A stretch of DNA of 64,000 nucleotides from a virus (lineage: Duplodnaviria; Heunggongvirae; Uroviricota; Caudoviricetes): IMG/VR virus record IMGVR_UViG_3300021426_000084. The stretch is one strand, 5' to 3'. Below the pieces are notes generated by a model that did not search any database, was not told the DNA's origin, and saw only the letters and a program-made list of their open reading frames with translations. This document shows positions 14,241 through 47,800 of the stretch, in pieces. Position numbers and translations under genes: made by a program. Each line of letters begins with the position of its first letter. Positions within the stretch are counted from its first letter, which is position 1.

Positions 14241-14495
14241 ATGTATGCAATAAAAGAGTGGGCAGATGAAATAAAGGATATTGTAGCTAAATATCCTACA
14301 GCTAAGTTTGACGACGAATGCGATGAGATACTTTGCGACAGCGAAGAAGTTGCAGTTTCCATGGCAAATGAAATCGAAGAACGCATGGAAGAATTATGCG
14401 TCAACTGTTCAGTTCATACTTGTTATTACAATTCCGAGGAAGACAAAATATCAGACCCAGAATCATATAACGTATGGGCTGTGTATATCATGTAA
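14241..14495 (+). CDS. hypothetical acidic protein
   Basis: SD ggaggaat. Confidence 0.5.
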   Translation: MYAIKEWADEIKDIVAKYPTAKFDDECDEILCDSEEVAVSMANEIEERMEELCVNCSVHTCYYNSEEDKISDPESYNVWAVYIM

Positions 14496-14521
14496 AAGTG
14501 GGTTATAAACAGGGGCACAGG

Positions 14522-14713
14522 ATGTCACAAGAGAATAGTAAGCCAAAATTTGAAGTCGACCAGCCAGTTCGTGTAAAAGCGACCGGCTATGTCGGCGAAG
14601 TATACAGCCGCATTCTGGATTTAGATGGTGATTCATATTGCTATAAGCTCATTCATGGTATTGACTATGAATGGTATAAAGAAAATGAGCTGGAAGCAGT
14701 ACAAGAAGCTTAG
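14522..14713 (+). CDS. hypothetical protein
   Basis: ORF 14474-14713, trimmed to ATG 14522. Confidence 0.4.
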   Translation: MSQENSKPKFEVDQPVRVKATGYVGEVYSRILDLDGDSYCYKLIHGIDYEWYKENELEAVQEA

Positions 14714-18437: not shown

Positions 18438-19706
18438 GTGGCAGATATTCTATTGAAGAGTTTCTTTGAAAAATCGCGGTGGGAATCTGCCATTGATACG
18501 GGCGTAGCTAAACGTCTGGACAGATGCATGCTGAAAGAAATGTGTACTAAAGAAGGGCGCCTTGACCTTTACCATCGCATTCGTGATAACAAGTATTACA
18601 TCCGCCCACCGCATGAAGCACTTATCCCCAAGGATAACGGGGAATTTCGAACGGTTTACGTTAACGAAAATGAAGACCGAATTATCCTGTCCATCATCAA
18701 TGACATGCTGTTCGACCTGTATCCACAGAAAGTACATCCGGCCTGCCGTTCTTACCAGAAAGGTATCGGATGCGGCAAGATAGTGCAGGAGGCATCCAAA
18801 GTCCTGGCCGGTATTCATAGCAGCATCGTAGGCTACAAGGTTGACCTTAGTAAGTATTTCGACTCTGTACCTCGCCAGTATATCGATGAAGTATTTGATG
18901 ATGTCGAAAGTAAATTCGGCGCATCCAAAATCATCGATATCCTGCGTGAGTATTATCATACGGATATGGTATATAATCTGCAGAAAAAGCTGATTGAAAA
19001 ATACTCAAGCTTAAGACAGGGATGTGCCGTGGCCGCATATCTTGCCGATGCCGTTCTTTATGACATTGACGATTGCTTATCCAAAATGCCGGGTATTTAC
19101 TACGTCCGTTACTCCGACGACATTCTTATCCTGGGTGAACAAAACAGAACCGGAAAAGCCTTTGACAAACTCAGTGAACTTCTGACGCAGAAAGAGCTGA
19201 AGCTAAATCCAAAGAAGGTGGAAGTCCTGCAAAAAGACCGCTGGTTTAAGTTCCTGGGTTTCACACTGAAGGAAAATCATATCAGCCTGTCTAAGTCACG
19301 AATTAAGAGATTCCAAAAGGCAATTGATGAGCATACATTCAAAGGCAAGTCAAGGAATGAATACCAGCTGGTCAAGAATGTGTTCCGCGCCTTATATCAG
19401 GGCGAAGATGATTACAGTTGGGGAACTAGCGTATTGCCCATCATTAATGTTCAGAAGGACATCGATACCCTGAATTCTTATGTCATGGATGCTATTCGGG
19501 CGGCCATAACCGGGAAAACCCGTATTGGCGGCCTTGGCGTCACAATAAATCAAAGAGATTGTACTATTGCCAGAGGCAAGGGGCGTAACGTTAAGATGAA
19601 TCGGATAAAAAATCCTGTATTGGAATCTTATCTGAGTATCGGTTGCATGCGTAATGCCCTTCTAACTTCGAAAGAGGCTTATTTGACTTTGGCTATGTCA
19701 ATCTGA
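18438..19706 (+). CDS. reverse transcriptase (free-standing, group-II-intron-like/unclassified lineage)
   Basis: RT motifs 1-7: IPKDNGEFRTV, SYQKGIG, GYKVDLSKYFDSV, LRQGCAVAAYLAD, YYVRYSDDILIL (YxDD), LNPKKVEV, FKFLGF; about 110-aa thumb-like C-terminus; GTG start after aggaggg. Confidence 0.85.
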   Translation: MADILLKSFFEKSRWESAIDTGVAKRLDRCMLKEMCTKEGRLDLYHRIRDNKYYIRPPHEALIPKDNGEFRTVYVNENEDRIILSIINDMLFDLYPQKVHPACRSYQKGIGCGKIVQEASKVLAGIHSSIVGYKVDLSKYFDSVPRQYIDEVFDDVESKFGASKIIDILREYYHTDMVYNLQKKLIEKYSSLRQGCAVAAYLADAVLYDIDDCLSKMPGIYYVRYSDDILILGEQNRTGKAFDKLSELLTQKELKLNPKKVEVLQKDRWFKFLGFTLKENHISLSKSRIKRFQKAIDEHTFKGKSRNEYQLVKNVFRALYQGEDDYSWGTSVLPIINVQKDIDTLNSYVMDAIRAAITGKTRIGGLGVTINQRDCTIARGKGRNVKMNRIKNPVLESYLSIGCMRNALLTSKEAYLTLAMSI

Positions 19707-25930: not shown

Positions 25931-26407
25931 CTGCTTAGTAACTGAAAACGTACTCAGGTATGTAAAAATGTGTAGCAATATGCTAAAGACTCAAGAAATC
26001 CATTGAGTTAGTTCGTGCTGACTTTATAGCAGTCGGAATGGCTGGAAATAAACCAGAGGCGGTTGAAACAGTCCGTCTAACTACGGGATAGCACCCTGAT
26101 GGTAGCCGTTGGACAGTGGTAAATGCGAGAACCAAGCAAAGGCTGGCGAGCCTAAACGCAAAACAATATCACGAAAGGAGAAAGCTACTAGATGTAATCG
26201 GCAGAATATCATAAACAAGATACTGTCGATATGTACCGATGGCTAGTCGGGAATTTACGTCTTCGGAGTATCACACAAACGTTAGTAGCCTGTCTTTCGG
26301 GACGGCGAGAACGGATACGATGAACAAGGAACTACAAATCGTGAGATTGTAGCGATACATCTTGATATAGGCATATTTGTCTATATTTTAAGTAGCAGTA
26401 ACTGCCG

Positions 26408-26953: not shown

Positions 26954-27043
26954 CGCAAAAGGCCCCCAAAAGGGGGCCAACTGCGTGTTAGGTAACAAAA
27001 AAAGAAAGTGTTTCAATCCACTCCCGGTCAAAGCCAGGAGACA

Positions 27044-27205
27044 AGCCGCCTATTCGGCGGTAAACATGATATTCCAAATTCATAGATTTCTAAGCCGCCT
27101 ATCCGGCGGGAAAAAGGAACCACCAATTTGATAGATTTCTAAGCCACCTACTCGGCGGTAAACAAAACCAAGAAAAATATAAATTTCTAAGCCGCCTATG
27201 CGGCG
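27044..27205. repeat. four direct repeats of a 16-bp GC hairpin (gccRcctaYNcggcgg) at exact 49-bp spacing; copies 2-4 share the 5' flank atttctaa
   Basis: copies at 27044, 27093, 27142 and 27190; AT-rich variable spacers of about 25 bp. Confidence 0.7.
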
Positions 27206-27319
27206 GTGAACTGGAATATCATGATATAATGATATCAGAAATTTTTTTCTTTGTCTAGCAGGAGTCTTAAAGGATATGCTAGAATAAAGAAAGAAGATTG
27301 TGTAAAAGGGGGATTAATT

Positions 27320-29842: not shown

Positions 29843-30289
29843 TAAATCATCGTCAAGGAAGACGATAAGACATCTCCTACATAAATCATTTCAATCACAT
29901 CCAAGAAGGGCAAGACGCCTCTTGCGCTTCTACAATCTCCCCACAGTTTCTCCTATACCATATTTTCAAATCTCTCATAAGTATCAAATCTCCTTTCAAC
30001 CAGTCTTTATAGGCTGGTCGGTGCAAAGACCAAAGAGAAGTTTTTCAGTCTTCGTGTTCACCCCCATGAGCCTGTTCTTTGTACCGATGAACCTATAAGG
30101 TCACATCGGCCGGTTCTTAAACTGGTTAGTGTGTAGAAGTCAAACACCTCCGTTTCGCAGAACCCCAACCGCGAAACGTACTTCTACCCGCTAACGAGTC
30201 CAAGAACAGGGCTCAAGCCAATTTTTGGCTATATTTTCATGATAATGACTCCTTTCATACGACGTCCGGCCTTTACCGGGCGCCGTAAT

Positions 30290-30364
30290 TCCCCAGTAGC
30301 TCAGCTGGTAGAGCATCTGACGATTAATCAGGTGACGCAGGTTCGAGTCCTGCCTGGGGAGCCA
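30290..30364 (+). tRNA. tRNA, anticodon unresolved (loop CGATTAA lacks U33)
   Basis: 7-bp acceptor stem tccccag/ctgggga, D-arm gctc/gagc, T-loop ttcgagt, CCA encoded. Confidence 0.6.
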
Positions 30365-31018
30365 ATTTAATATTAACAAACAGAAAACTATGGCAAAGCA
30401 TACCTCGGTTATAAAACGCAATATCATGCGTCCGAGAATGGCCCCGTAATTGATACTGACAAACTGCAGTAGATATGCCTGCAGCGAGTACGTCCTTTCT
30501 TAGCGATAAGAGTAGGGTGATGCGTAAAGTGTAAGCGCATGTATCTTGAGGTTATGTGCATGCAATGCCGAGCGTTAAAGCAGGAACTGATAGGGTTTCA
30601 TAAGTGTATGAGTACAAATGGTGTGCTCCGCTGCCGCCAGTAAAGACTAAAGCGTGATAAACTTTAGGTACACGAGGTATTTATCAAGATGGAACTTTGC
30701 CGTGATGTCTTCAAAAGAGACTATAACTGTCAGTCGCCGTATGAGTAGCCCAAGGCAATGATACAGATCAAGTATGTAGCTTTATAGCAATCTATAATTC
30801 TGAATGACGGGTGAAAGTTGGAAGTCTTAATCTTCTCGGAGCTAGAAAGAGGCAAGAAGCGCGTGTCGACGGGCGCGTTGCTCAGACTTGTCTTCTCCGT
30901 GGCTGAATAAATGCAGAGCATCAAGTTGTGTACAGGGAAACCTGATGTTTTGCCGTAGTTTTGTGTTTGTTAATAACACAACTAAAAATGCGCCCAAGCG
31001 GCGCGGTTACAATTTTGT

Positions 31019-31094
31019 GTACCTTTGGTGTAATTGGTAACACGGCAGTCTCCAAAACTGTAAGATGTTGGTTCGAGTCCAGCAGGGTATGCCA
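31019..31094 (+). tRNA. tRNA-Trp (CCA)
   Basis: cloverleaf with anticodon loop ctCCAaa; CCA end. Confidence 0.75.
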
Positions 31095-31099
31095 TCTAT

Positions 31100-31173
31100 G
31101 CCGGTATAGCTCAATGGGGATAGAGCACCGAAACGTAACCTCGGCGACTCAGGTTCGAGTCCTGATACTGGCT
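31100..31173 (+). tRNA. tRNA or tRNA-like, anticodon unresolved (loop ACGTAAC)
   Basis: acceptor gccggta/tactggc, D-arm gctc/gagc, T-loop ttcgagt; no encoded CCA. Confidence 0.45.
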
Positions 31174-31556
31174 TAGCTAATTTAGTCTTACTGGTCTGAT
31201 CAACCGGTTAGGCGAAACACTACATGTAGTGCCGCGTAAAAGCGGTGTCCTTCGCGGTCGAGGGACATTAAAATTGACGGCCGCCTGTTTACGTCCCAGT
31301 ATCAGGTTAACGTCTGATCAGAGGCATACATTTTTCAGGGCGCCCACCGCAGCGCGGCACCACCGTTAATTATACGCCTAATGCCAAATGCGGTTAACTT
31401 GAATAATCCCCGTAAGGGATTAGATATATTGTTGTTAGACCCAGACGGTCGGCGACAAAGCACTGGTCACTATCCGACCACTCCGTAACTAAAATCCGTC
31501 AGCTACCGGAGGGAAACAGGACAGGTCCTGGGTAAGACATAACTGCCCACGCAAAA

Positions 31557-31632
31557 GCGGAAATAGCTCAGTTGGTAGAGCTTCTGCCTTCCAAGCAGAA
31601 TGTCGCGAGTTCGAGTCTCGTTTTCCGCTCCA
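31557..31632 (+). tRNA. tRNA-Gly (UCC)
   Basis: acceptor gcggaaa/tttccgc; anticodon loop ctTCCaa; CCA. Confidence 0.75.
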
Positions 31633-31638
31633 TATTAT

Positions 31639-31725
31639 GCCCCTGTCGCATAGAGGCCGATTGCACCGGTTTTGTAAACCGGTTCCGAAAAGGACACGTC
31701 AGTTCGAATCTGACCGGGGGCTCCA
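31639..31725 (+). tRNA. type II (long variable arm) tRNA, anticodon unresolved (loop TTTGTAA, apparent UGU)
   Basis: acceptor gcccctg/cgggggc, T-arm gtcag-ttcgaat-ctgac, 15-nt variable arm, CCA. Confidence 0.5.
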
Positions 31726-31773
31726 TAAAAACAAAAAAGCAAGACTATAAAAACATAAGGAAGGTAACAAACA

Positions 31774-32046
31774 TTGACATCTCTTGAATGGAATGACCTT
31801 GCCTCAAAATTCTATAGCTTCAAATCCGAGGCAGAAAAACATGGTTTCTATGTGCCAGAACTGGCCGGCATGGAAAACAGCCTGAATATCATTCGTCCCT
31901 ACCAGGAAAACGAAGAACTGCATAAGAAAACGGCAAGTGGATTTGTATCTCGTATGCAGAGTAAGGCTGATGATGTTAAGGCCTGGGCGTTGGCAAAGTT
32001 CAGCGCGCCGAAGTATAATGACGATGATGAGCTGGTGCATGCCTGA
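31774..32046 (+). CDS. hypothetical protein
   Basis: TTG start after taaggaaggtaa. Confidence 0.5.
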   Translation: MTSLEWNDLASKFYSFKSEAEKHGFYVPELAGMENSLNIIRPYQENEELHKKTASGFVSRMQSKADDVKAWALAKFSAPKYNDDDELVHA

Positions 32047-32288
32047 TGTTTAATTTTTCTAAATACGATATGCTGACTCTACTTGATGAGTATGTCACAT
32101 ACATTATGGCAACATGCGCAATTTTTACGGTAACAATCTTCGTCGCAATGGTAAAACATTCCCTTGAAACGGCGGTGATAATCGCTATCATGATTTTTAT
32201 CATAGGTCCAGCCGCGGGTTTCTTAGGTAGAACTATATATGACTTTATTTTAGAGAGGTTTGGTGGCAATGGTAAAGACTTATTCTAA
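32046..32288 (+). CDS. small membrane protein
   Basis: two hydrophobic helices. Confidence 0.45.
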   Translation: MFNFSKYDMLTLLDEYVTYIMATCAIFTVTIFVAMVKHSLETAVIIAIMIFIIGPAAGFLGRTIYDFILERFGGNGKDLF

Positions 32289-32513
32289 CACTAAAAAGGC
32301 AAAAGCGCTGTTTTATCCGAAGGCTAAGTGTTGCGCACACACCAATGTTATGATTGGCGGCGGCCGTTTGATGGGCCGCTACGTAGGATCGACCGGTAAA
32401 CGATGATAGCGTTAATGCTTGCTGTCGTGGTCTGGTGTTGTACGGATAACGGCTACGCAGCATTAGCAGCGTTCTTTGCTTGCTTAGCTTTGGAAAAATA
32501 AATGAGGAAAAAC

Positions 32514-33140
32514 ATGAACAATTGTCTTAAAAAGGAAATTATCTGCAGCTATAAACCTGGCGATTGGTTCGATAGGATTCCACTTGCGCATCTTTGCGAC
32601 GGCGGTATAACAGCAATCAATGTAGACCGCCGTTTTGGAAAGTCCACATTCGTCGCCAATGCAGCCAAAAAGATTTTGTCGCAAGATATGGCTGACATCA
32701 TTGTTGTTGAGTGTGGCGGCAAAAACAGAATAAAACTCATGAAAACGGTCTTTAAGGAAGTTTTCGGCGATAATTTCGAAAAACAGTACCCGCAGATTGA
32801 GATAAGGCCTCATGGCAATAGAGCACTAAGTAAGCGGCGTACAGTAATATTTATTGATGAATTTTCGTATACGGCAACCGACGATGACATCCATGAAATT
32901 CTGAAAAGCGAGCTCATCAGCGATGCACAAACCTGGATTCTTCTGGATACTTCTTATGAAGGTTCAACCGATATGAAAGACAAGAATCCGTTCGCTGGCT
33001 TACTAGAAATGCCCTTCGTAAGAACCTACGAAGTGGTTGGTCGCATTCCTGAAGAATGTCTCGCTTATTATAGCGATGAACAGCAGCAAGCGATTAAAAA
33101 GCGTCAAGAAGCATTTCATCTCCAGTGTTTCATGTTTTAA
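32514..33140 (+). CDS. P-loop NTPase-like protein
   Basis: Walker A-like VDRRFGKSTF and Walker B-like VIFIDEF. Confidence 0.5.
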   Translation: MNNCLKKEIICSYKPGDWFDRIPLAHLCDGGITAINVDRRFGKSTFVANAAKKILSQDMADIIVVECGGKNRIKLMKTVFKEVFGDNFEKQYPQIEIRPHGNRALSKRRTVIFIDEFSYTATDDDIHEILKSELISDAQTWILLDTSYEGSTDMKDKNPFAGLLEMPFVRTYEVVGRIPEECLAYYSDEQQQAIKKRQEAFHLQCFMF

Positions 33141-33223
33141 ACAAATCCCCCTCCATGTGACCGGCTAGGACGAGGCCATAGAATATCGTCCACTTTATTA
33201 AAATTCTGTTATAGGAGAGAAAA

Positions 33224-33451
33224 ATGACAGTATATATGGTTATTCACCAAACTTTGTGCGATGATTATGACCAGGACGTTATGGGTGTTTTTTCAAACGC
33301 CGAAGCCGCCCAGGCGTGCTATGACGACTGGATTAATGAATACGGCCTTGAGGGTTGTGACAATGGCGCGTATTACAATGATGGTGAACATCGCTTAGAA
33401 ATTCACTCATATAAAATTGAGGAAACTTACGAGCGAGATTCAGATTTTTAA
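33224..33451 (+). CDS. small acidic hypothetical protein
   Basis: 75-aa ORF with SD aggagagaaaa. Confidence 0.45.
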   Translation: MTVYMVIHQTLCDDYDQDVMGVFSNAEAAQACYDDWINEYGLEGCDNGAYYNDGEHRLEIHSYKIEETYERDSDF

Positions 33452-34102
33452 ATTTTGCGACCGACACTAATGTCGGCCATAAAACATGCGTGACCTGACT
33501 GCTGGTTGCCAAGAGAACCATGCAGCGAATAAAGAATGCGAAGAAGACTGACGTCATTCATCGCAAGCCTCGGAGAGCCCTGAAAGAAACTTGGCCTGTG
33601 GCAGAAATCTCCAATGAGGACACCGTAAACGCAAAATGAATTACGGTACAATCCGGCCCTAGAGAACAAGCCGGATAGACGCAAAGACCCTTACGGGTCT
33701 GAAAGATTATAGGAATAAGTGGGTCATCACCAAACCACCTATAACTGACGTTAGGCGCAGCGGAAAGACAAGTGCGATAGATGGTATGCCCAAGCCGAAT
33801 AAAAGTGAGGTCGTTCCTTATCGGAGCGAAGAAAAGTAGAGGCTTAGTCAGCACGGCGACAATGCAAAGAAAAGTTCGTGTAAAGCCGCGTTGTAAAATC
33901 AAAAGATTCAGCCCAGACCAGGCTCATAGCAGGAGGGGTTGACGCGCAATAATGACTTCATACCTTCTGGTATGGTCGCTGGACAAGGAAAAGTCTAAAA
34001 ACCCGGCACGAGAGAGGCTACACCGATGCTGAGTAGCTGAGCTGTTTGAGACGAGCAGTCATCCCGTGACGGCAGGATGTAAAATGAAGCCGCCCCTATA
34101 AT

Positions 34103-34185
34103 GAGGCAGTAGCTTAAATGGCTAGAGCAGACGGGAAAGCAAATGGGGCTTTCTTATGATGGTGGTTCGACTCCTCCCTGCCTCC
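34103..34185 (+). other. tRNA-like element (perfect acceptor pair, D- and T-arms, non-canonical anticodon region)
   Basis: gaggcag...ctgcctc acceptor pair; T-loop ttcgact; the middle 33 nt does not form a standard anticodon arm. Confidence 0.4.
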
Positions 34186-34198
34186 CCTATATCATACA

Positions 34199-34269
34199 TC
34201 CCCAAAGCTCCTCCGGCAGGGCTCGTAAGGCTACGGCCTGCGGCGAAGGTTCGAATCCTTCTTGGGGAT
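34199..34269 (+). other. tRNA-like element (acceptor pair plus T-arm, no canonical D/anticodon arms)
   Basis: tccccaa...ttgggga; gaagg-ttcgaat-ccttc. Confidence 0.35.
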
Positions 34270-35996
34270 ATCATGCTCATAGTCTGGGGGACACCGGCCG
34301 GTAGACAGGTTCGATTCCTGTAATGGGCAAAAACAAAATGCTTTCACGGAAAGTGTGCTCACCGCGAAAGAAGTTTTAGCCGCAGCAGACCGCACACCCT
34401 GGTAAATACGGCAAAAACGATGTTTCCCGATATCAAAGAATCGGGCATCAATGACTGTGGATGCGTATAAATAGACAGTCAGCTTGAGTCACCGTGGACC
34501 CCGGATACCCCAAAAGGAGTATGCCGGCTAACGCCTAGCCGAAATGGCGGGCGGCCCTGTGGGGCGCGATCCACGACACAAAAGCTTTCCTGCAGGCGGT
34601 GGGTTAACCTAGCGTATAGAAGGGGCTCCATTACCCCTGAGACAAAAGTCTCGAAGAGATGACCATTGAAGAAGGGTCTCCATTAACCCTGGCTGTAACC
34701 AGAATAGGCCAACCGTGTTTTCGGGCTCGCATCGTTATGAGCGTCCCGATTACCCGGCGCCAACAGCCGAAGAGATGACCTTTATCGGAGCGTTCGCTAT
34801 CGGACAATTACTGGGGAAGTAAGAACTAAAGGCCACGGTTTTTAGCACCCAGAATAACGACGCGAAGGCATTCCTTTCGGTGGAGGTATACCGAAGAACA
34901 ATATGAAACCTGGGCCGTCCCGATAACGCCATAAAGTACAAATGGTAGCTCGGTCAAACGGTAGCAAGGTTGCACCAAGCGTACCTGGATTACCTTCGCC
35001 TGGACGGACTAAAGTACACGGTCTATCAATTTAAGGGCGATAACAGGCACGAAGGCGATTTAGCCCCGGACAAGGCGAAAAACTGTTTAGTAGGCACCGA
35101 TTACTACTTAATAAGACAGTCGGGAACAGTGAAGACTCACTCTAAACAGGCTAGATGAGCATGGGTATCGCCCATGCCGAAGTTATCGGCCACTTCGCTG
35201 AAGACGACCGATGTGTTTGCGGGACGACCGCAACTGGGAGTGCATCCTCTCAGGATAAACCTGCAGAAGATACCTGTCCGAAACAGGATAGGGAAACCGG
35301 TGGCCAAGGCAATAATCCGGTAAACACCGATATATGTAGGACTCCCCTGCGGGGCGAGTAAGTTCATCGGTGGCCGCAAAAAGAAAACATCTCATAAGCG
35401 AGAGTCCGGTCATGAAAGCTAATCCCTTTCAGGCTCTCCCGATGCTGCTTATCTTTTCGGGCATTAAAAACACCAGACCTCGTAAGCGAAGACAGAGAGG
35501 ACGCTCTCGTTCAAATCGGTGAAGCTTGCCATCACCTATGTACAAAAAGCCTTGCCATGTAGAGCGAGCATGATGCTGCTGTAGAGTAGGTCGGGCATCA
35601 AAGATTTTAGACCTCGTAAGCAAAGACAGAGGAAACGTCCTCGTTCAAATCGGTATGAAGCTTACCCCAGATGACGGGCATTTGCCAAAGCTTGGATGGG
35701 TTAATCCGACATAGCGCTGCTACACTTCGGGCGCTAAATTAATCACACAACTGCTTGTATAAGTGCGTGTATGACTGCCGTGGAGGGGCTGCGCGTGATG
35801 GGAGAGGTTCTGCCTGATAGTGACCAAAAGAGTTCAACTACCGTGAGTCCCACGGGGAAACAACAAGCCCTGTACCTTACGAAACAGGCATGGCGCCGCT
35901 TTATGATAGTTGTTCGGGCGCTAAAAACCTGCACTGGCAACTTCATCTTTCATTGTCAGTAAAAGCGTTTGATAACCCGACCCGAAAGGGTCATAT

Positions 35997-36399
35997 GGGG
36001 CTGTAAAGGTTTCGACAGGATATTGAAGCCGTAAGATTCGCAGGCCGATGGTTATGAAGCCTAACTCATTAACCGCTAAATTCAACTGACGAAGCTGAAT
36101 ATCGTCTCGCTGCCTAATCTGCCTTAACGGTAGATTGGTTAGCCCCTATCGTATCACTAGCTGTGAGCAGGGCGATAGGTTTCAAATAAACACAGCAAAA
36201 CGTCAGGAGGCCCGCTCGACGTAAACAACACGGGGAGTTTTCCTGCTTTCTCAAAAGCAGGTGGTGGAGGTGTAGACCATTGCATCGTTGTTCGGCTGGT
36301 TACACCCTAGAGAATGGCGCTCTTAAAAATGCCTATTGCGATAATGTCTTACAGGTGGATGTATTTTGGACAGGAGTTCGATTCTCCTCAGCTCCACCA
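35997..36399 (+). ncRNA. ssrA: tmRNA (ssrA)
   Basis: 5' ggggctgtaaaggtttcgacagg and 3' ggacaggagttcgattctcctcagctccacca match tmRNA tRNA-like domain consensus; internal tag frame ends ...DEAEYRLAA-TAA. Confidence 0.8.
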
Positions 36400-36582
36400 T
36401 CGTTTCAACGAGGTTAGCGTCTCGAAGAAGCGGATTGAGAAGCTAAAATCAGCCATATCGGCTGATTGAAGTAAATCTGTGATTCTGCAGAATCTCTGGA
36501 AGCTTGCGCCAGACTTGGAATACAGCAAGACAGGTTTACTTCAGTGAACCGATATGGAAAGTAAAAATAGGGGGTACATATC

Positions 36583-36918
36583 ATGACAATTGAAGAGTTT
36601 TCTGAAAAGATAAAACTCAAAGAAGAAAACGTAGGACGATTAAAAGAATACATCAAACAGGCAGATAGAATGGACTCGGTTGTATTTTGGTATCGCAAAA
36701 CGGAAGAATACATGGGCAATCATGGTTACGCCGAAGGCGACAATAGTTTTTCCGTTGCTATTAAAGATAATAGCGGCCTCTTTGGCCCTGATTTTAATGA
36801 GTTAAAGACGCATTATCTTCAGATATTAGAAGACGAATTAGCTAAAGCTGAAAATGAACTGAAAGCCATGAAAGAGAAAAAGATAAAAATAGAAGAGTGG
36901 CTTTCTGAAGAATTATGA
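36583..36918 (+). CDS. coiled-coil hypothetical protein
   Basis: 111-aa ORF with SD aaaatagggggt. Confidence 0.5.
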   Translation: MTIEEFSEKIKLKEENVGRLKEYIKQADRMDSVVFWYRKTEEYMGNHGYAEGDNSFSVAIKDNSGLFGPDFNELKTHYLQILEDELAKAENELKAMKEKKIKIEEWLSEEL

Positions 36919-37472
36919 ACAAGACAGTAAAGTTATATCTTCTCGGTGGTACTGCTGTCGTAGACTTTGTTTATTCGGCAACATCACCAATTATTCATAT
37001 ATATTTCATAAGTCTGATAAGTTCCAGCGTTTTGGCCATGGCCAATATCCTGACCACCGCTTTAGCAGCAGGTGTAAATGCTTCGATTCAGTCTGACAAA
37101 CTTAAGGATTTTTATCGGCATCATTTTCTCTGGATAATTACAATAGATATTATCTGCTTCGCGCTTATCAGTTTCGAAGGTATATCTATACCGGAAGTCA
37201 GGTTTCTCGGCTTAGCAGTTTTAAATGCTGTGTCATCAACACTCTGGTTTACGGTAATAAACGACGCGATTAATCATCAAATTGAAGGCGATAGATTGAC
37301 AAAATGGAATAGCTTATCTAAAACGGTTAACCTTACAGCCGCCCTCGCCGGCAGCGTAATCGCGATAATCTTTACAAATATCGGCGTAGAGTATTGTATC
37401 GCGGCCCAGTGCATAGCAAATCTTGTCATGGGTGCAACTGATTGGCTGGCTTATAAGAGGATAAGATATTGA
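36915..37472 (+). CDS. integral membrane protein (about 5 TM helices)
   Basis: hydrophobic throughout; ATGA overlap. Confidence 0.55.
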   Translation: MNKTVKLYLLGGTAVVDFVYSATSPIIHIYFISLISSSVLAMANILTTALAAGVNASIQSDKLKDFYRHHFLWIITIDIICFALISFEGISIPEVRFLGLAVLNAVSSTLWFTVINDAINHQIEGDRLTKWNSLSKTVNLTAALAGSVIAIIFTNIGVEYCIAAQCIANLVMGATDWLAYKRIRY

Positions 37473-37618
37473 TTAATCTGCTTGATTTTATTATATACTT
37501 TTTTATTTTCATCACGTTACTGTGTATAATAAAAGCCACTATTGTTCTTGGCTTCACAATAACTTTTCCGGCAATTTTGATGTTTGTAGCTATTGTTTTG
37601 GCAATGATGGAGGAAGAA

Positions 37619-37818
37619 TGAGTAAAAGAAATTTACGCATTGGCGATAATGCTTATCTGGCTAATTGTGAAGACTGGTCAAATAGCTATTATCCTTGCAA
37701 AGTCATCAAGGTAAGGGATGACAACACGTATGACTTGTACGAACCTAGTATTGGCAAAACTCATTACGGTGTTCATCGTGATGCTATTGTGGATCAGATT
37801 GAATTCGATGCCGGATGA
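37619..37818 (+). CDS. small hypothetical protein
   Basis: ATG 37619 after ggaggaaga. Confidence 0.45.
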
Positions 37819-37845
37819 TGAGATATTAAAAGGGGATAGAATTAC

Positions 37846-38094
37846 ATGATAGCGAAAAAGACGTGGAATGAGTTTAGAGAGACAGGCTTATTCCTTCTGG
37901 TAAATCAGTTCCTGCACATTTTTGGATGGGCGTTGGTTGTTGAGGCAACGGAAGACGGAGAAGTAATTGAATGTTATCCCGCCCGCACTAAATTCAGAGG
38001 ATTTGGCGAGAAAAGCGTTTCGGCAGCTTACCAAAAAGTAAGCAAATATATGGCAGATAACGCCGCCGAGTTATACGAAGAAGCAAAGCGATAA
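37846..38094 (+). CDS. hypothetical protein
   Basis: 82-aa ORF with SD aaaggggat. Confidence 0.5.
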   Translation: MIAKKTWNEFRETGLFLLVNQFLHIFGWALVVEATEDGEVIECYPARTKFRGFGEKSVSAAYQKVSKYMADNAAELYEEAKR

Positions 38095-38219
38095 TGGAGA
38101 AAAAATCGAATGATAGCAATAGATGACAGTTTTGTGGCGGCCATGCTTATATTCGCCTTCGCAATGATTTGGGTAATAGCGATTGGAGCTGTATCCATGT
38201 TGAATGATGAAGATAGAAC

Positions 38220-38417
38220 ATGAATAAAGTCATTGATTTACAAAAGTACAGAGAAGAAAACAACCCACATGAAGTGGCCGAAGTAATCTGTTTGCATTGT
38301 ATGAACCGTTGGATATCCGTGCATGAGCAAGGTGAATGGCTTGCTAAATGGGAATGTCCTAAATGTAGTAAAGTGGGCGGCATTATATATACGGGACAAC
38401 CATTGCCAGAGGAGTGA
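38220..38417 (+). CDS. small zinc-ribbon protein
   Basis: CLHC...CPKC. Confidence 0.45.
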   Translation: MNKVIDLQKYREENNPHEVAEVICLHCMNRWISVHEQGEWLAKWECPKCSKVGGIIYTGQPLPEE

Positions 38418-38484
38418 ATAAATAATGAATGATGAATGGACGTAAAAGCTAACAACAGATAGCACTAGATGAGGAGTGATAAGC

Positions 38485-38712
38485 TTGAAAAAATATATGA
38501 TTGGAGTCCTGATGGGGCTAATCATTGGCTTAACAGCTACGGCGTTTGCCGGTTATTGGAGTCAGAGTGTTACTGTTTATACTGACCCAGACACGCAGGT
38601 GCAATACCTTATCGTCGAAGAAAATAGCAGTGATGGCATGGGTGTTGGTATCTGCCCGCGTTACACGTCTTCCGGCAACATTATGTATGTTGGCAGTGAG
38701 ATAGTAGAATGA
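38485..38712 (+). CDS. small membrane/secreted protein
   Basis: TTG start after gaggag; hydrophobic N-terminus. Confidence 0.45.
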   Translation: MKKYMIGVLMGLIIGLTATAFAGYWSQSVTVYTDPDTQVQYLIVEENSSDGMGVGICPRYTSSGNIMYVGSEIVE

Positions 38713-38921
38713 TTAGGTCAAAAAAGCTTCGATATTACAACAAGAAAATGTGGCGCGCATTATATGTTTGCCATAATTCGAGAAATACATTACTCGATAG
38801 TATAACGGGAGTTTTTGGAAATCCTCCGCACCGTCCTGAGCGGGGATTAAAATTTGCCGCTGAACTATATCAATGTCTAGGATTAAAACTTCCGACATTT
38901 TATGCGAGAGAAGACAGATGA
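38709..38921 (+). CDS. hypothetical protein
   Basis: 70-aa ORF with ATGA overlap. Confidence 0.4.
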   Translation: MIRSKKLRYYNKKMWRALYVCHNSRNTLLDSITGVFGNPPHRPERGLKFAAELYQCLGLKLPTFYAREDR

Positions 38922-39103
38922 TGGAATTCAAATTAAATCCAAAGCTTGAAGAATGGATAAATGAGCATAACAAAATCTGTCATTCCAATGCTTCGGCCGG
39001 CGAACATTATCAATTTGAATTTCTACCAACAGGCATTATGGAAATCCAAACCGTTAAATGTCTTTGCTGCGGAGAAGAAAGGACAGAATATGATGGCTGG
39101 TGA
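38918..39103 (+). CDS. small zinc-ribbon protein
   Basis: CHS...C...CLCCGE. Confidence 0.4.
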   Translation: MMEFKLNPKLEEWINEHNKICHSNASAGEHYQFEFLPTGIMEIQTVKCLCCGEERTEYDGW

Positions 39104-39299
39104 ATGGGCGCAAAAATTGACAACAGAACGAGTAATTAAACATATTCAAGATGGTATAAAGAAAGCGCACAAAGCATTTTTGGCTCAACAAGCTATCCTT
39201 TCAATGAATAAATCTCACAGAAGGCGTCGGCAAATAGCAAAAGCTTATAAGCTGATTTACCCAATGGCAACGATAAATTTGACAAGGAAAAGTCATTAA
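39090..39299 (+). CDS. small basic protein
   Basis: ATG 39090 after gaaaggacag. Confidence 0.4.
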   Translation: MMAGEWAQKLTTERVIKHIQDGIKKAHKAFLAQQAILSMNKSHRRRRQIAKAYKLIYPMATINLTRKSH

Positions 39300-39860
39300 A
39301 ACCCATCACAGCAGGAGCGTCTGTGGATACGTTGAGCTCGCACCCAGGAGTCAATAGCCGTGTTAAAGTCAGGCAACGTAGAGGCCAAATACTTAGATAT
39401 AATAGTAGTATCACCCCGTCGCGCAGGGGAGGTGTACGGTGCAAGTCCGTACAGACATTGGCAAGAGAGCTTCATAATCTGCAGTAAAGCAGCAAAAATC
39501 CTCCGCCCATGTTCGCAACAGGTAAAGGGCGTAAAAGATGTAAACCTGTCCGGCCGAACGCAAAACCTGTGATGCATGCTGTAACAGGAAGGTCACTGCC
39601 GCCTTAAGAGAAGAAAAGTGATTCCCATGGAGAACTCCAGTGTGGTCCGTTCCGCTCCATGGTATAGCTATTGCGTTATGCTATGTAAAAAGTACGCACG
39701 TTCGGGTGAATGTGAGACCCCGCGTGAGGAACAACGAAAGAGATTCCTGTTTTCCCAGCATTTTTGGTACAAAAATGTTGCGCCAGCCTTTGACCTGACC
39801 AGTCAATAAAAAGTCAGCGATATGACCAGGGGGGCAGTTAGCTTGAGCCCCCACCATTAT

Positions 39861-39953
39861 GGGAGATTGGACCTGGATTGGAGCCAGGGCAGCATTTAGC
39901 GCTGCGCAGGGTACGCGCCCTCAACGTAAGTTCGAATCTTACATCTCCCGCCA
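39861..39953 (+). tRNA. type II tRNA (93 nt), anticodon loop ATTTAGC (apparent UUA or UAG; unresolved)
   Basis: acceptor gggagat/atctccc, T-arm gtaag-ttcgaat-cttac, long variable arm, CCA encoded. Confidence 0.5.
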
Positions 39954-40121
39954 AAAGAAAAAAACAGGTGATAAATATGTCTCCTCTCGATTGGCTTGAT
40001 GATGAAGAAGATAAAATTGATCATCATTAAGGGGCCATCCGTAGTCCACTGCAAAGGACGAGCCGGTAGAATGATGGGTTGGCATCCTCCGTTTCGGGCT
40101 TCGTAAAAAGTACCACAAGGG

Positions 40122-40160
40122 CTGCGGCGTGATTTGCAGACGCCGCAGAATTACTCTTGT
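40122..40160 (+). terminator. hairpin, possible terminator
   Basis: ctgcggcg ... cgccgcag stem followed by a partly T-rich tract. Confidence 0.35.
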
Positions 40161-40169
40161 TATTATTAT

Positions 40170-40246
40170 GCGCCACTTAGCTTAACAGGAAGAGCCTATG
40201 GGTCTAGCTCATAGAGATTCTGGTTCAAATCCAGAGGGGCGCACCA
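40170..40246 (+). tRNA. type I tRNA with apparent CUA anticodon (amber-suppressor-like)
   Basis: acceptor gcgccac/ggggcgc (one mismatch), D gctt/gagc, anticodon stem tatgg/tcata with loop gtCTAgc, T-arm tctgg-ttcaaat-ccaga, ACCA. Confidence 0.5.
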
Positions 40247-40544
40247 ATATCATGTCCCTAATGAGGTTAGCGTCTCAGCGGGGAGGAATCCGTTTTAGTT
40301 TACCCTGAGGAATAGGCAATGATGAGTGCGCAATTATCTAGCTGAAACGAGGGGTAAATGAGGGCCTGCAGGGCAACCAGGTGCGGATATAGTATGCAGA
40401 GAACTACAACCTGCCGGAAACTTGACTGCCGTTATAGATGTCAAGCGTAGAATACCACGTTAGGTGTATCGAGGGAGCCGGCAATCTCCCGACGTCAGCC
40501 AAAAACTTACCAGAGGCGGCAAATTGCCATGCCGTCTCGATTAA

Positions 40545-40621
40545 GGACCCCTAGCTCAGTTGGTCAGAGCATCCGGCTCATAACCGGCGGGTCCTCGGTT
40601 CAAGTCCGAGGGGGTCCACCA
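40545..40621 (+). tRNA. tRNA-Met/Ile2 (CAU)
   Basis: acceptor ggacccc/ggggtcc; loop ctCATaa; CCA. Confidence 0.7.
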
Positions 40622-41285
40622 TAATGGAACAGGCAAGGCGAAAGTCTTGTAAGTTCCTCTCCTTTTCTAAACCAATGAACTACAAAAACAGCGAGTGTCC
40701 TGAACTTCGGTTCAGGCGCCCGTAGAGCCCTTAATGAAGGTTGAGGGTTGTACGGGCGAAAGCCCGACCAAGAATATTACAATAACTGCGCGGGGACAGT
40801 ATAACAGCCCTGTAGTGCTTCGGTGGTCTGTGCACGAAAGAAATACAGCCTTCCACTTATGAGGGGTCGTTGAGAGGTGGGCGCATCGTCGTCGTAGGTT
40901 CGAACCCTACCGTCCCTCATCTATTATGGCAGCGTTGGCTATATCGGGTATCTGGTTGCAAACGGATACTTTGATGAATGGGTGGGCCAATGAAACTGGA
41001 AGAGGTTGCAAACTCCGAAGGGTACGCGGGTTCAACTCCCGCCGCTGTCTCTATCATGTCAGTGTCGGCATAATGGTAATGCCAGGGCCGCAAGCCTGAT
41101 ATGCGGGTTCAACTCCCGCCGCTGACCGTATACGTAAAGTCATGTGACTTGTCATTCTTTCCGAGGGTTATCAAGACTCAAACAAGAAACCCTTCGCAAC
41201 ATTTCAAGCTTTGGCTGGCGTCTGTCTTACGACAGGAACACTGGAGGCAAAGCTAGGGGCAGTTGGCAACAGCTGCTCCGGTACT

Positions 41286-41360
41286 AGGGGTATCGCCAAG
41301 CGGTTAAGGCACCGGGTTTTGATCCCGGCATCTTCAGTTCAAATCTGAATACCCCCGCCA
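41286..41360 (+). tRNA. tRNA-Gln (UUG)
   Basis: anticodon stem ccggg/cccgg with loop ttTTGat; T-arm ttcag-ttcaaat-ctgaa; GCCA end. Confidence 0.6.
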
Positions 41361-41364
41361 TTAT

Positions 41365-41469
41365 GGGAAGCAATCTGGTGGTTTGTAAGTGCAAATGCAG
41401 GTTCGACTCCTGCCACCTCGTAAGAGGTTTGGGGAAAACAAGGGCCCGGTTCGATTCCGGGGCTTCCCG
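41365..41469 (+). other. tRNA-like element with two T-arm-like hairpins inside one acceptor pair
   Basis: gggaagc ... gcagg-ttcgact-cctgc ... cccgg-ttcgatt-ccggg ... gcttccc. Confidence 0.4.
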
Positions 41470-41771
41470 CCTTAATCATGAAGCTAATATGTTGGCGTCA
41501 GCTTTCCTCGTATGATAAAGATACGGATAAGCTATATGGCCGTATATTGGCACCGGTAAAAGCTCGAAACAAAAGTAAGTAGCCGGGGCAAGACCGGGAC
41601 ACCTCCTGGAATTTATTGTGAACATCGAGATTATTATGCATATACTTTTTGTCCAAAAAGCCAGGTGTGGCTTCCGACTCGATGCGGTTAAAAGAGGATG
41701 AAAAGTATAGTGAAGATATCTACAAAGGGCAACCGCTTAGTCGAGCTCCCTGCGAATCGGATATCTATCAT

Positions 41772-41846
41772 GGCTTGGTAGTCTAGTGGTTAGGCAACGG
41801 TCTGCAAAACCGTTTTACGCCGGTTCGATTCCGGCCCAAGCCTCCA
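41772..41846 (+). tRNA. tRNA-Cys (GCA)
   Basis: acceptor ggcttgg/ccaagcc; loop ctGCAaa; CCA. Confidence 0.75.
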
Positions 41847-41852
41847 TATCAT

Positions 41853-41949
41853 GGGAAACGTCATGGTGGCGGAAAAGAGCATTCGGGTTCGATTCCCGAC
41901 GCCCTGCGGGGTCCGTGGTGGTCAGCCTGGTTCGAGTCCAGGGTTTCCT
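41853..41949 (+). other. second tRNA-like element with two T-arm-like hairpins
   Basis: gggaaac ... tcggg-ttcgatt-cccga ... cctgg-ttcgagt-ccagg ... gtttcct. Confidence 0.4.
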
Positions 41950-42289
41950 TTACATTGCCGTAGTAACTCTGCGTATGTATACCTTCCGTTAAAGGCGACT
42001 CAAACGCCGGAAGCCGGGCCTACAGCCCGAGGCAGCGAAATCCCTCCGATTTGAGCGGAGAACCTGACAGCCAGCTCGAAGTTTTAGTAGGGCAGGTTCA
42101 TGTCGAAATGGTAGCGGTGGCGAAGTCCTTGGGGTGGATGAGTAGCCGATATTGGAGTTCCTATATTGGACAGTAAAAGCGGGTTCGATTCCCGACACGC
42201 CGACGGGCGTCCTGGTGGTAAAGTGCCGGTGCGTGCAGGCTTCAAATCCGGATTGAGCCTGTGCAATTCCGGCAGCTCCAAACTATTAT

Positions 42290-42382
42290 GGAGATGTACC
42301 CAAGTGGTTTAAGGGGGCTGCTTTGAAAGCAGATAGGCCGCAGTGATGCGACGCGCGGGTTCGAATCCTGCCATCTCCTCCA
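42290..42382 (+). tRNA. tRNA-Ser (UGA), type II
   Basis: acceptor ggagatg/catctcc; loop ttTGAaa; long variable arm; CCA. Confidence 0.7.
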
Positions 42383-42388
42383 TATTAC

Positions 42389-42476
42389 GGAGAGGTGTCC
42401 GAGTGGCTAAAGGAACCGGTTTCGAAAATCGGCGTACTGAAAAGTACCGTGGGTTCGAATCCCACTCTCTCCGCCA
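42389..42476 (+). tRNA. tRNA-Ser (CGA), type II
   Basis: acceptor ggagagg/tctctcc; loop ttCGAaa; long variable arm; CCA. Confidence 0.7.
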
Positions 42477-47068: not shown

Positions 47069-47800
47069 ATGTTTAATGCAGGAGATATGATTGATGGCCA
47101 TACTATCTGCTTAAAGGCATTAGTGGGCAGCCATAATTACAATCTCAACACACCGGAATCCGACAGGGATTACAAATACTTCGTGTGGCCGACGTTCAGT
47201 GACCTGTACGACAATAAAATGTATCACAAAGAAGTGGTCACGGATGCCGAGGACTATACTGTCCATGATGTTCGTAAGCTCCCGATGCTTCTTTGGAAAG
47301 CCAATCTGAATTTTATTGAGATTCTGTATTCCAAGGAACTTACCGGTGATTCAAGCTTGCTGGAGTATCTGGAAGAACATAAAGAAGAACTGGCAACAAT
47401 GAATTTGCCAGGCTTATATATGGCTGCCATGAACATGTCTCTTGATAAAGAAAAGCTTATGACAAAGGATTCGCCGGCGCGGCATGACGCCATCGAAAAA
47501 TATGGTTACGATCCGAAAAGCGCCTGTCATGCATTGAGAGTCGTTGACTTTTTGAGAAAGTACCATGTGTTCCGGGATATGTCTGACGCATTCTGGTATC
47601 CAACGGGTTCATTGGATTACGCTGGCATCATGGATATCAAGCAAGGAAAGTTGTCTCTTCAGGATTTCAAAGACTGCCTGTATGATATCAGAGAAACAGC
47701 TAAATCCTTTAAATACAGTTTTTCCGCGCCAAAGGATGAACTCGCTTATAATGATTTTTGCATAGTCCTGAAGCAGAAAGTGAGACAGAGACTTTGCTAA
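47069..47800 (+). CDS. Pol-beta-superfamily nucleotidyltransferase
   Basis: LVGSHNYNLNTPESDRDYKYFV matches hG[GS]-x(9-13)-D-x-[DE]h; 243 aa with helical C-terminal half. Confidence 0.55.
   Translation: MFNAGDMIDGHTICLKALVGSHNYNLNTPESDRDYKYFVWPTFSDLYDNKMYHKEVVTDAEDYTVHDVRKLPMLLWKANLNFIEILYSKELTGDSSLLEYLEEHKEELATMNLPGLYMAAMNMSLDKEKLMTKDSPARHDAIEKYGYDPKSACHALRVVDFLRKYHVFRDMSDAFWYPTGSLDYAGIMDIKQGKLSLQDFKDCLYDIRETAKSFKYSFSAPKDELAYNDFCIVLKQKVRQRLC

Follow-up and report, generated by a model that had tools for sequence, protein, structure and literature searches.

An intact one-piece tmRNA gene in an uncultured huge-phage clade

Introduction

Transfer-messenger RNA (tmRNA, encoded by ssrA) has been described in phage genomes of several kinds. 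A survey reports tmRNAs in 402 of 18,146 phage genomes, with 133 unique tmRNAs, 53 of them two-piece (PMC9004378), huge phages are listed with both tmRNA and SmpB in their translation-related repertoire (Al-Shayeb et al. 2020, PMC7162821), and phage G has an annotated tmRNA with the tag AKLNITNNELQVA (PMC12484599). For ssrA of the type found in the marine phage Melnitz, maintenance of the hijacked translation machinery or tagging of host proteins has been proposed (PMC9004378). The present analysis concerns a 64,000-nucleotide (nt) stretch of the IMG/VR virus record IMGVR_UViG_3300021426_000084 (Caudoviricetes), referred to throughout as the window, which carries a one-piece tmRNA gene of 403 nt at 35997-36399 on the + strand.

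The gene resembles the tmRNAs of huge and jumbo phages (PMC7162821, PMC12484599) in sharing a phage genome above 200 kb with numerous tRNAs and further translation-related genes, but it forms a new sequence lineage, encodes a different tag and lies in an island with ROOL RNA and further structured RNAs. Some of those phages are also reported to possess SmpB, whereas none was found in the available part of this genome. Marine two-piece tmRNAs such as that of Melnitz (PMC9004378) are likewise phage-encoded, although the gene here is one-piece, its habitat is the rumen rather than the sea, and no riboswitch was detected.

Comparison with SsrA of E. coli reveals an extensive common architecture, encompassing an alanine tRNA-like domain with G3:U, helix H2, pseudoknot PK1, a frame lacking a start codon, an A at position -4, a stop codon within helix H5, the pseudoknots PK2-PK4 and a tag ending in -LAA. 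The phage RNA differs in its length (403 nt versus 363 nt in E. coli), in its predicted resume codon, GAC (Asp) instead of GCA (Ala), and in its tag, an acidic peptide shorter by one residue in which R rather than A precedes LAA. Its frame also ends in one UAA stop, compared with a tandem pair in E. coli, and no smpB was found adjacent to the phage gene.

Results

Identification of the tmRNA gene

ARAGORN returned a tmRNA with ends at exactly 35997 and 36399 (+) and the tag DEAEYRLAA*, and the Rfam tmRNA model RF00023 matched the same interval over its full length (model positions 1-374 of 374), scoring 91.3 bits where the gathering score is 47 (E = 3.3e-34), far beyond chance. The preliminary description of this stretch, made from the letters alone, had proposed a phage-encoded tmRNA at this location with 5' end GGGGCTGTAAAGGTTTCGACAGG and 3' end GGACAGGAGTTCGATTCTCCTCAGCTCCACCA, and both the location and the quoted ends are borne out. 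It had named a covariance-model score below threshold, or a tRNA-like domain unable to fold with the H5/H2 pairing, as grounds for giving up the proposal; the observed score is close to double the threshold, and folding succeeds for the tRNA-like domain as well as for H2 and H5. Orthologues occur at the related loci L001-L004, L006, L036, L037 and L038, with RF00023 scores of 85.7-90.7 bits. A two-piece (circularly permuted) tmRNA was considered and rejected, as RF04321 reached only 25.9 bits against a threshold of 47 and ARAGORN called the standard form. The interval 35997-36399 is an intact, full-length one-piece tmRNA gene, and the phage gene displays every sequence-level characteristic of the tmRNA family that was tested.

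The window is part of contig NODE_8 (334,475 bp; ENA assembly ERZ12302851), with the tmRNA located mid-window and phage-type small genes on the same strand on both sides. Four IMG/VR viral contigs (147, 207, 211 and 236 kb) encode the neighbouring 185-amino-acid (aa) protein at 92-94% identity, with a tmRNA about 0.7 kb upstream in each. Given the contig size, the phage-type genes on both sides and this synteny, the gene resides in a phage genome and is not a host ssrA lying beside a prophage, which agrees with the phage-borne character first proposed. The neighbouring gene is identical in a contig from run SRR873600, a number within the range given for low-methane sheep-rumen metagenomes (PMC4158751). 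A search of the region DNA against INPHARED found no resembling record.

Structure and covariation

The exact 32-nt tmRNA 3' end had no match in IMG/VR; the neighbouring 185-aa protein and a degenerate pattern for the tag served instead to find relatives. These provide four distinct variants, namely the window, L001 (the same as L036), L004 (the same as L037) and the partial L038. A MAFFT alignment made without flanks was discarded, having mis-registered the 5' end of L001 and falsely broken its acceptor stem, and the flanked alignments A1 and A4 were used instead. The structure was counted on alignment A4 from a hand drawing with 103 pairs, 16 helices and four pseudoknots.

Standard pairs occupy 97.5% of the 356 pair cells, compared with 37-42% after sliding the partner by 1-3 columns, a percentage inflated relative to the slid controls by the derivation of the structure from the window sequence; compensatory changes are less affected by this. 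Changes on both sides with pairing kept were found at 9 pairs; shuffles yield 3.8 +/- 1.4 (9 attained in 2 of 500) and the slid controls 0-3. These nine compensatory pairs are distributed over the acceptor stem (2), the T stem (2), H2 (1), PK1 stem 1 (1, in two variants), PK2 stem 1 (2) and PK3 (1).

The acceptor stem comprises 7 base pairs (bp) between the 5' strand GGGGCUG at 35997-36003 (+; tmRNA 1-7) and CAGCUCC at 36389-36395 (tmRNA 393-399), a tmRNA position plus 35996 giving the window coordinate. All 7 of its 7 pairs are standard in all variants, both compensatory pairs occurring in L001 (C-G to A-U and U-A to C-G). The pair formed by G3 (35999) and U (36393) is invariant, alignment columns 57/453 being G:U in 3 of 3 full-length variants even though the neighbouring pairs co-vary. 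The G3:U70 wobble is the identity element of alanyl-tRNA synthetase (AlaRS). The T arm, AGGAG-UUCGAUU-CUCCU, spans 36372-36388 (tmRNA 376-392) and is followed by the acceptor 3' strand (36389-36395) and by the discriminator A with an encoded CCA (36396-36399), the whole 3' portion occupying 36372-36399 (+). Two compensatory pairs fall in the T stem, and the acceptor and T-arm helices (helices 1 and 16) are 100% paired. CCA is encoded in the window and in L004 but is missing from L001, which has ACGG instead, so at least the L001 variant would need a host CCA-adding enzyme. The D arm is replaced by the D-loop analogue GGUUUCGAC, and an anticodon arm is absent.

Helix H2 leads from this domain into the pseudoknot ring, its 5' strand at 36016-36042 (+; tmRNA 20-46) pairing in three segments with 36337-36368 (tmRNA 341-372). 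It contains 23 pairs, with segments 97-100% paired, including one compensatory pair (A-U to G-C), three that vary on one side and one C-A mismatch in L004. Pseudoknot PK1 (36043-36074, +; tmRNA 47-78) consists of stem 1, GGC/GCC, in which a G-C pair becomes A-U in L001 and L038, and stem 2, GGUUAUGA/UCAUUAACC, whose 8 pairs are invariant. Helix H5 (36114-36138, +; tmRNA 118-142) has 10 bp with the UAA stop inside its 5' strand; all of its cells are paired, and two pairs are altered on one side only (U-G to U-A and C-G to U-G). The remaining ring at 36145-36333 (+) is formed by PK2 (36145-36196), PK3 with a hairpin (36200-36261) and PK4 (36269-36333), corresponding to tmRNA 149-200, 204-265 and 273-337, drawn by hand as H-type pseudoknots with helices assigned from the window sequence. 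PK2 stem 1 contains two compensatory pairs in L038 and PK4 is invariant, while PK3 is the variable and weakest part of the structure, being 86-90% paired with insertions and deletions in L004.

Tag reading frame

The tag frame extends over 36088-36117 (+) and reads GAC GAA GCU GAA UAU CGU CUC GCU GCC UAA, encoding (A)DEAEYRLAA, a tag with a hydrophobic C-terminus, without a start codon. ARAGORN and the Rfam alignment to the consensus agree in predicting the resume codon at GAC (36088-36090; tmRNA position 92), and the stop codon UAA lies at 36115-36117. A 13-nt spacer, GCUAAAUUCAACU, separates PK1 from GAC and places an A at -4, as in E. coli and Kapaibacteria. The preliminary description had started the frame further upstream, at ccg cta aat tca act gac and on to taa; its frame is correct and is open from tmRNA position 77, but the upstream residues NST probably fall outside the tag, since both programs put the resume codon at GAC. 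A resume codon GCU in a different frame, at tmRNA position 79 (tag AKFN*), was rejected because it adjoins PK1 with no spacer and its G79 is A in L004 and L038.

Among the variants the tag is either DEAEYRLAA or DEVEYRLAA, with A or V at the third residue, and L038 shows two synonymous changes besides (GAA to GAG and GCC to GCU), a pattern consistent with selection on the tag peptide. Taking the paired substitutions and the kept tag together, both structure and tag appear to be maintained by selection. A full-text literature search for the tag strings returned nothing relevant.

Relationship to other tmRNAs

BLAST of the tmRNA against 50,697 INPHARED records gave only a 36-nt match at the 3' end in two human-faecal phage contigs, and no match at E <= 10 was obtained against 5,426 complete E. 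coli genomes. One of these two contigs, MT835879, contains, at L041 1186-1536, an unannotated and unrelated tmRNA with the tag ADNRSELVAA, of which only the last 36 nt resemble the window tmRNA.

Scanning a genome collection for a tmRNA-like context encoding ...EYRLAA* identified 18 tmRNAs at 19 matching sites (L018-L035) in Kapaibacteria, Ignavibacteria, Chlorobiota and other metagenome-assembled genomes (MAGs), with the tags ADSYEYRLAA or ANSYEYRLAA and close variants. The Kapaibacteria, Ignavibacteria and Chlorobiota tmRNAs agree with the phage gene in the last six tag residues, -EYRLAA, and in the A at -4, but their resume codon is GCG and their tag is one codon longer. The presence of this ending in cellular tmRNAs marks it as a natural cellular tag ending and a plausible working degron. 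Several small marine viral contigs of IMG/VR (L011-L016) encode permuted tmRNAs with tags ANDDYYFGEYRLAA or ...SEYRLAA, so that the -EYRLAA ending recurs across unrelated tmRNA lineages.

Beyond the tag ending, blastn detected no similarity between the phage tmRNA and the -EYRLAA tmRNAs of the MAGs. Aligned identity is 44-50% to the MAG tmRNAs and about 47% to a hand-entered E. coli ssrA sequence. Capture from Kapaibacteria or Ignavibacteria was accordingly rejected, as the tag ending is all that is common and overall identity does not exceed baseline. The ending itself seems to be either convergent or ancient, with no sign of recent capture, and the phage tmRNA represents a divergent lineage.

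Flanking sequences and processing

Directly before G1 lies a 5' leader (35979-35996, +) composed of the hairpin GACCCGAAAGGGUC followed by AUAU, a presumed RNase P substrate leader, and this hairpin with AUAU is identical in the window, L001 and L004. L038 keeps AUAU as well, and there the tmRNA follows a tRNA-Pro gene (ARAGORN end 1004) at a distance of 6 nt. Sites resembling a sigma-70-type promoter or an intrinsic terminator around the tmRNA are no commoner than in shuffled sequence, and none is suitably placed. The leader, the spacing of tRNA-Pro in L038 and the lack of a flanking promoter or terminator suggest co-transcription with tRNA genes and processing by RNase P. Between the tmRNA 3' end and the next open reading frame (ORF; ATG at 36583), a long imperfect hairpin with 35-nt arms (inverted repeat I1) occupies 36453-36557 (+), with a minimum free energy (MFE) of -48.2 kcal/mol and a z-score of -6.4. 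It is kept in L006 and partly in L001, and is a possible processing or termination element.

Surrounding RNA gene island

The tmRNA lies in an RNA gene island at 30290-42476 (+). Besides ROOL RNA, this island comprises about 14 tRNA genes, suppressor-type tRNAs among them, grouped in two blocks (30290-31725 and 39861-42476), and conserved structured blocks devoid of ORFs at 33450-35990. The ROOL RNA is full length (30380-30963, +; 216 bits against a gathering score of 99), is flanked by tRNA genes and precedes the tmRNA by about 5 kb; it is also present at L004 2734-3317, being kept in the L004/L006 relative, and was not observed at the L001-L003 loci. A very stable predicted fold (MFE -109 kcal/mol, z -8.2) with no Rfam match at E <= 1 occupies 29980-30295 (+), shortly before the tRNA-Asn/ROOL block.

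Several of the tRNA genes are of unusual type. A tRNA(UUA) at 39861-39953 (+), of the ochre-suppressor type, forms a clean class-II cloverleaf with the anticodon loop AU-UUA-GC, G73 and an encoded CCA, and is kept in L004 (12686-12778) with a compensatory change. A tRNA(CUA) of the amber-suppressor type lies at 40170-40246 (+), and its L004 orthologue (12998-13072) has a different anticodon stem-loop (UGC). The tRNA-Asn at 30290-30364 (+) displays an altered anticodon stem-loop, CGAUUAA (G at 33, anticodon AUU), compared with CUGUUAA (GUU) in relatives, and is either an anticodon-loop variant or a decaying copy. Strong folding (z -3.8 to -5.9 in 200-nt windows) was also observed at 40400-40900 (+) in the second tRNA block, beyond an annotated tRNA-Met gene.

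Directly upstream of the tmRNA, 33450-35990 (+) forms a GC-rich region of 2.5 kb without a convincing ORF. Its blocks 33488-33677 and 35216-35464 have 98-99% identity to L006, against about 85% for neighbouring genes, belong to no Rfam family, and fold z-scores are -4.7 (33450-33720) and -3.0 (35100-35470). The region further contains a 64-nt direct repeat (35457-35520 and 35591-35654), a long-range complement of 14 nt (34837-34850 with 35916-35929) and three T-arm-like GGTTCGAnTCC motifs near 34160-34330, one of which is called as a weak tRNA (34103-34185). These features are probably unannotated structured RNAs.

Outside the island, a RAGATH-18 RNA motif was located at 26260-26331 (+; 65.9 bits against a gathering score of 44.9), and the RNA island of the relatives L001/L002/L003 contains at 14331-14594 a HEARO RNA that is not in the window (83.7 bits against a gathering score of 83). 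On the opposite strand, 27040-27215 (-) holds four tandem copies of a type I-F-like clustered regularly interspaced short palindromic repeat (CRISPR), the best being GTTCACCGCCGCATAGGCGGCTTAGAAA, with scores of 46, 31 and 31 bits for Rfam CRISPR-DR4. Their spacers measure about 20-24 nt, compared with the normal 32 nt, and no cas genes were seen nearby; the copies may represent either a degenerate mini-array or an array that acts as a decoy or in the manner of an RNA anti-CRISPR. In PLSDB the repeats are matched by I-F arrays from many Proteobacteria, with no single genus standing out, which suggests, at the level of repeat sequence, that the host may be proteobacterial.

Gene content of the phage region

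The ORFs of the window are short, closely packed and nearly all on the + strand, and cumulative GC skew is monotonic. Family scans of the window proteins (best 25 of 31 and best 25 of 36 families) revealed PHROG and Pfam families typical of a large-phage accessory region, including an S49 peptidase (PHROG 'head maturation protease'), a minor head protein PHROG, Band7/NfeD, NAD ligase, NrdG-like radical SAM, Ham1, PARG, SIR2, Lar restriction alleviation, a phage ProQ-C-like domain and SocA/Panacea; no integrase was among the matches listed. The S49 peptidase is less than 37% identical to any cultured-phage homologue and has relatives in phages of many hosts. A reverse transcriptase of 422 aa (RVT_1, 6.7e-25) is encoded at 18438-19706 (+) in the accessory region. 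An RlaP-family nucleotidyltransferase of an RNA-repair pathway is encoded at 47069-47800 (+; Pfam 23.8 bits, PHROG nucleotidyltransferase 2e-26), and a HAD_SAK_2 domain, typical of 'Swiss Army Knife' RNA-repair proteins, occurs elsewhere in the window (6.7e-25). Among the 96 window ORFs, TAA serves as stop in 56, TGA in 36 and TAG in 4. Alternative genetic codes were rejected, as no specific gain came from reading TAG, TAA or TGA as sense, and 87% of the 0-26 kb region is covered under code 11.

Discussion

The gene most probably encodes a functional phage tmRNA that carries out ordinary trans-translation for ribosome rescue, a reading to which we assign a probability of about 0.8. Charging, dependence on SmpB, tagging, degradation of the tagged proteins and benefit to the phage are steps that we infer. 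The tmRNA would be transcribed together with neighbouring tRNA and non-coding RNA genes, its 5' end being trimmed by host RNase P, and host alanyl-tRNA synthetase would charge it through G3:U and A73. SmpB, either from the host or from a phage copy outside the window, would then deliver it with EF-Tu to ribosomes stalled at the broken or stop-less 3' ends of mRNAs. After transfer of the nascent chain onto the tmRNA alanine, translation would resume at GAC, add DEAEYRLAA and end at UAA, freeing the ribosome and leaving a product with a C-terminal -LAA degron of the type recognised by ClpXP. The phage may benefit from ribosome rescue sustained over a long infection, in which host transcription is off and mRNAs are cut by phage nucleases or by host RNA-targeting defences, a benefit that would fit the company of many tRNAs, RNA-repair domains (RlaP, HAD_SAK_2) and NAD ligase. 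A putative tuning of host trans-translation or tagging by the phage ssrA, raised in the preliminary description, is a reasonable proposal.

Several observations weigh against ordinary ribosome rescue. The covariation statistics rest on four related variants and hence on few independent events, and RF00023 gives 86-91 bits in the phage clade compared with 134-154 in six of the cellular tmRNAs from the MAGs, indicating that the phage RNA is divergent. SmpB was not found, either among the Pfam matches listed for the 96 window ORFs or by tblastn of the window and the relatives' fetched flanks with a hand-entered E. coli query, so that activity would depend on a host SmpB accepting a divergent tRNA-like domain. 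A fifth and more distant contig, L005 (85% identity), lacks both tmRNA and tRNA genes in the 10 kb that precede the shared neighbour gene, implying that the gene is dispensable for, or accessory to, the lineage. The resume codon GAC is itself predicted, and resumption at the same-frame ACU or UCA would add T or ST to the tag, an addition that would leave the C-terminal degron untouched.

Rather than reproducing the outcome of host tagging, the phage tmRNA might out-compete that of the host and attach a tag, ADE(A/V)EYRLAA, that changes the fate of the protein through lost SspB-type enhancement, slower or protease-specific turnover, or a phage protease. In tags of the ANDENYALAA type, known from gamma-proteobacteria, SspB reads the N-terminal residues, while ClpX needs the C-terminal LAA. 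Should the host be proteobacterial, as the I-F-type repeat copies suggest, its tag would probably be of this type, and the phage tag would keep LAA while differing at the residues read by SspB and in having R for A before LAA. The tag is kept in all phage variants and differs in exactly these positions from the gamma-proteobacterial type (the E. coli tag being established knowledge), and the lack of BLAST-level similarity to E. coli ssrA argues against recent copying of the gene from a host of enterobacterial type. Nevertheless, such an altered fate is unlikely, as a difference from the host tag is assumed, -EYRLAA is a natural cellular tag ending, the LAA required by ClpX is retained, making ordinary degradation the simplest expectation, and the sole protease seen in the window is the S49 peptidase.

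The suppressor-type tRNAs offer another route to tmRNA activity, whereby read-through of stop codons would carry ribosomes to mRNA 3' ends, and the tmRNA would rescue them and mark the extended proteins for degradation. Suppressor tRNAs raise SsrA tagging in E. coli, according to a passage of PMC8012679 that cites Ueda et al. 2002, and the genes for tRNA(UUA), which is kept in L004 with a compensatory change, and for tRNA(CUA) lie 3.5-4 kb downstream of the tmRNA. This connection is nonetheless very improbable: in L001-L003 the tmRNA is present although the 20-kb locus contains no suppressor-type tRNA, the CUA tRNA has an L004 orthologue with a different anticodon arm, and the standard code 11 fits the window. 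With TAA ending 56 of the 96 ORFs, strong ochre suppression would harm the phage's own proteins, and the tag frame of the tmRNA itself closes with a single UAA.

A non-functional copy, whether a host ssrA taken up beside an integration site, an attP-type ssrA fragment or a passenger in decay, deserves hardly any credence: prophages commonly attach at the 3' ends of ssrA and may contain ssrA fragments (PMC9004378), and L005 lacks the gene, but the gene is full length rather than a 3' fragment, the family matches listed include no integrase, phage-type same-strand genes flank it mid-window with synteny in four large viral contigs, compensatory substitutions and the kept tag speak for ongoing selection, no similarity to any tested cellular ssrA was found, and a host ssrA at a prophage junction or an attP fragment is effectively excluded.

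Ordinary ribosome rescue could also be embedded in a larger arrangement, in which the tmRNA would be part of a co-transcribed RNA island of about 12 kb (ROOL, about 14 tRNAs with suppressors and altered loops, and structured RNAs) that, together with RNA-repair enzymes, would act as a counter-defence or takeover module keeping translation running against the cutting of tRNA and mRNA. The tmRNA would there rescue ribosomes and apply a phage-specific tag with a fate unlike that of the host's. This extended scheme is speculative and, on balance, doubtful.

Phage-borne tmRNAs are already known, from about 2% of phage genomes and also from huge phages, and what is new here is the sequence lineage, the clade, the habitat and the tag. 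More unusual than the tmRNA itself are the neighbouring structured RNAs, the suppressor-type tRNAs and the array of CRISPR repeats with short spacers. The conserved, acidic -EYRLAA tag offers a tangible reagent for testing whether the tags of phages and hosts undergo the same processing. The gene adds a structurally intact tmRNA lineage, apparently maintained by selection, from an uncultured clade of rumen huge phages, and supports the view that very large phages bring their own capacity for ribosome rescue.

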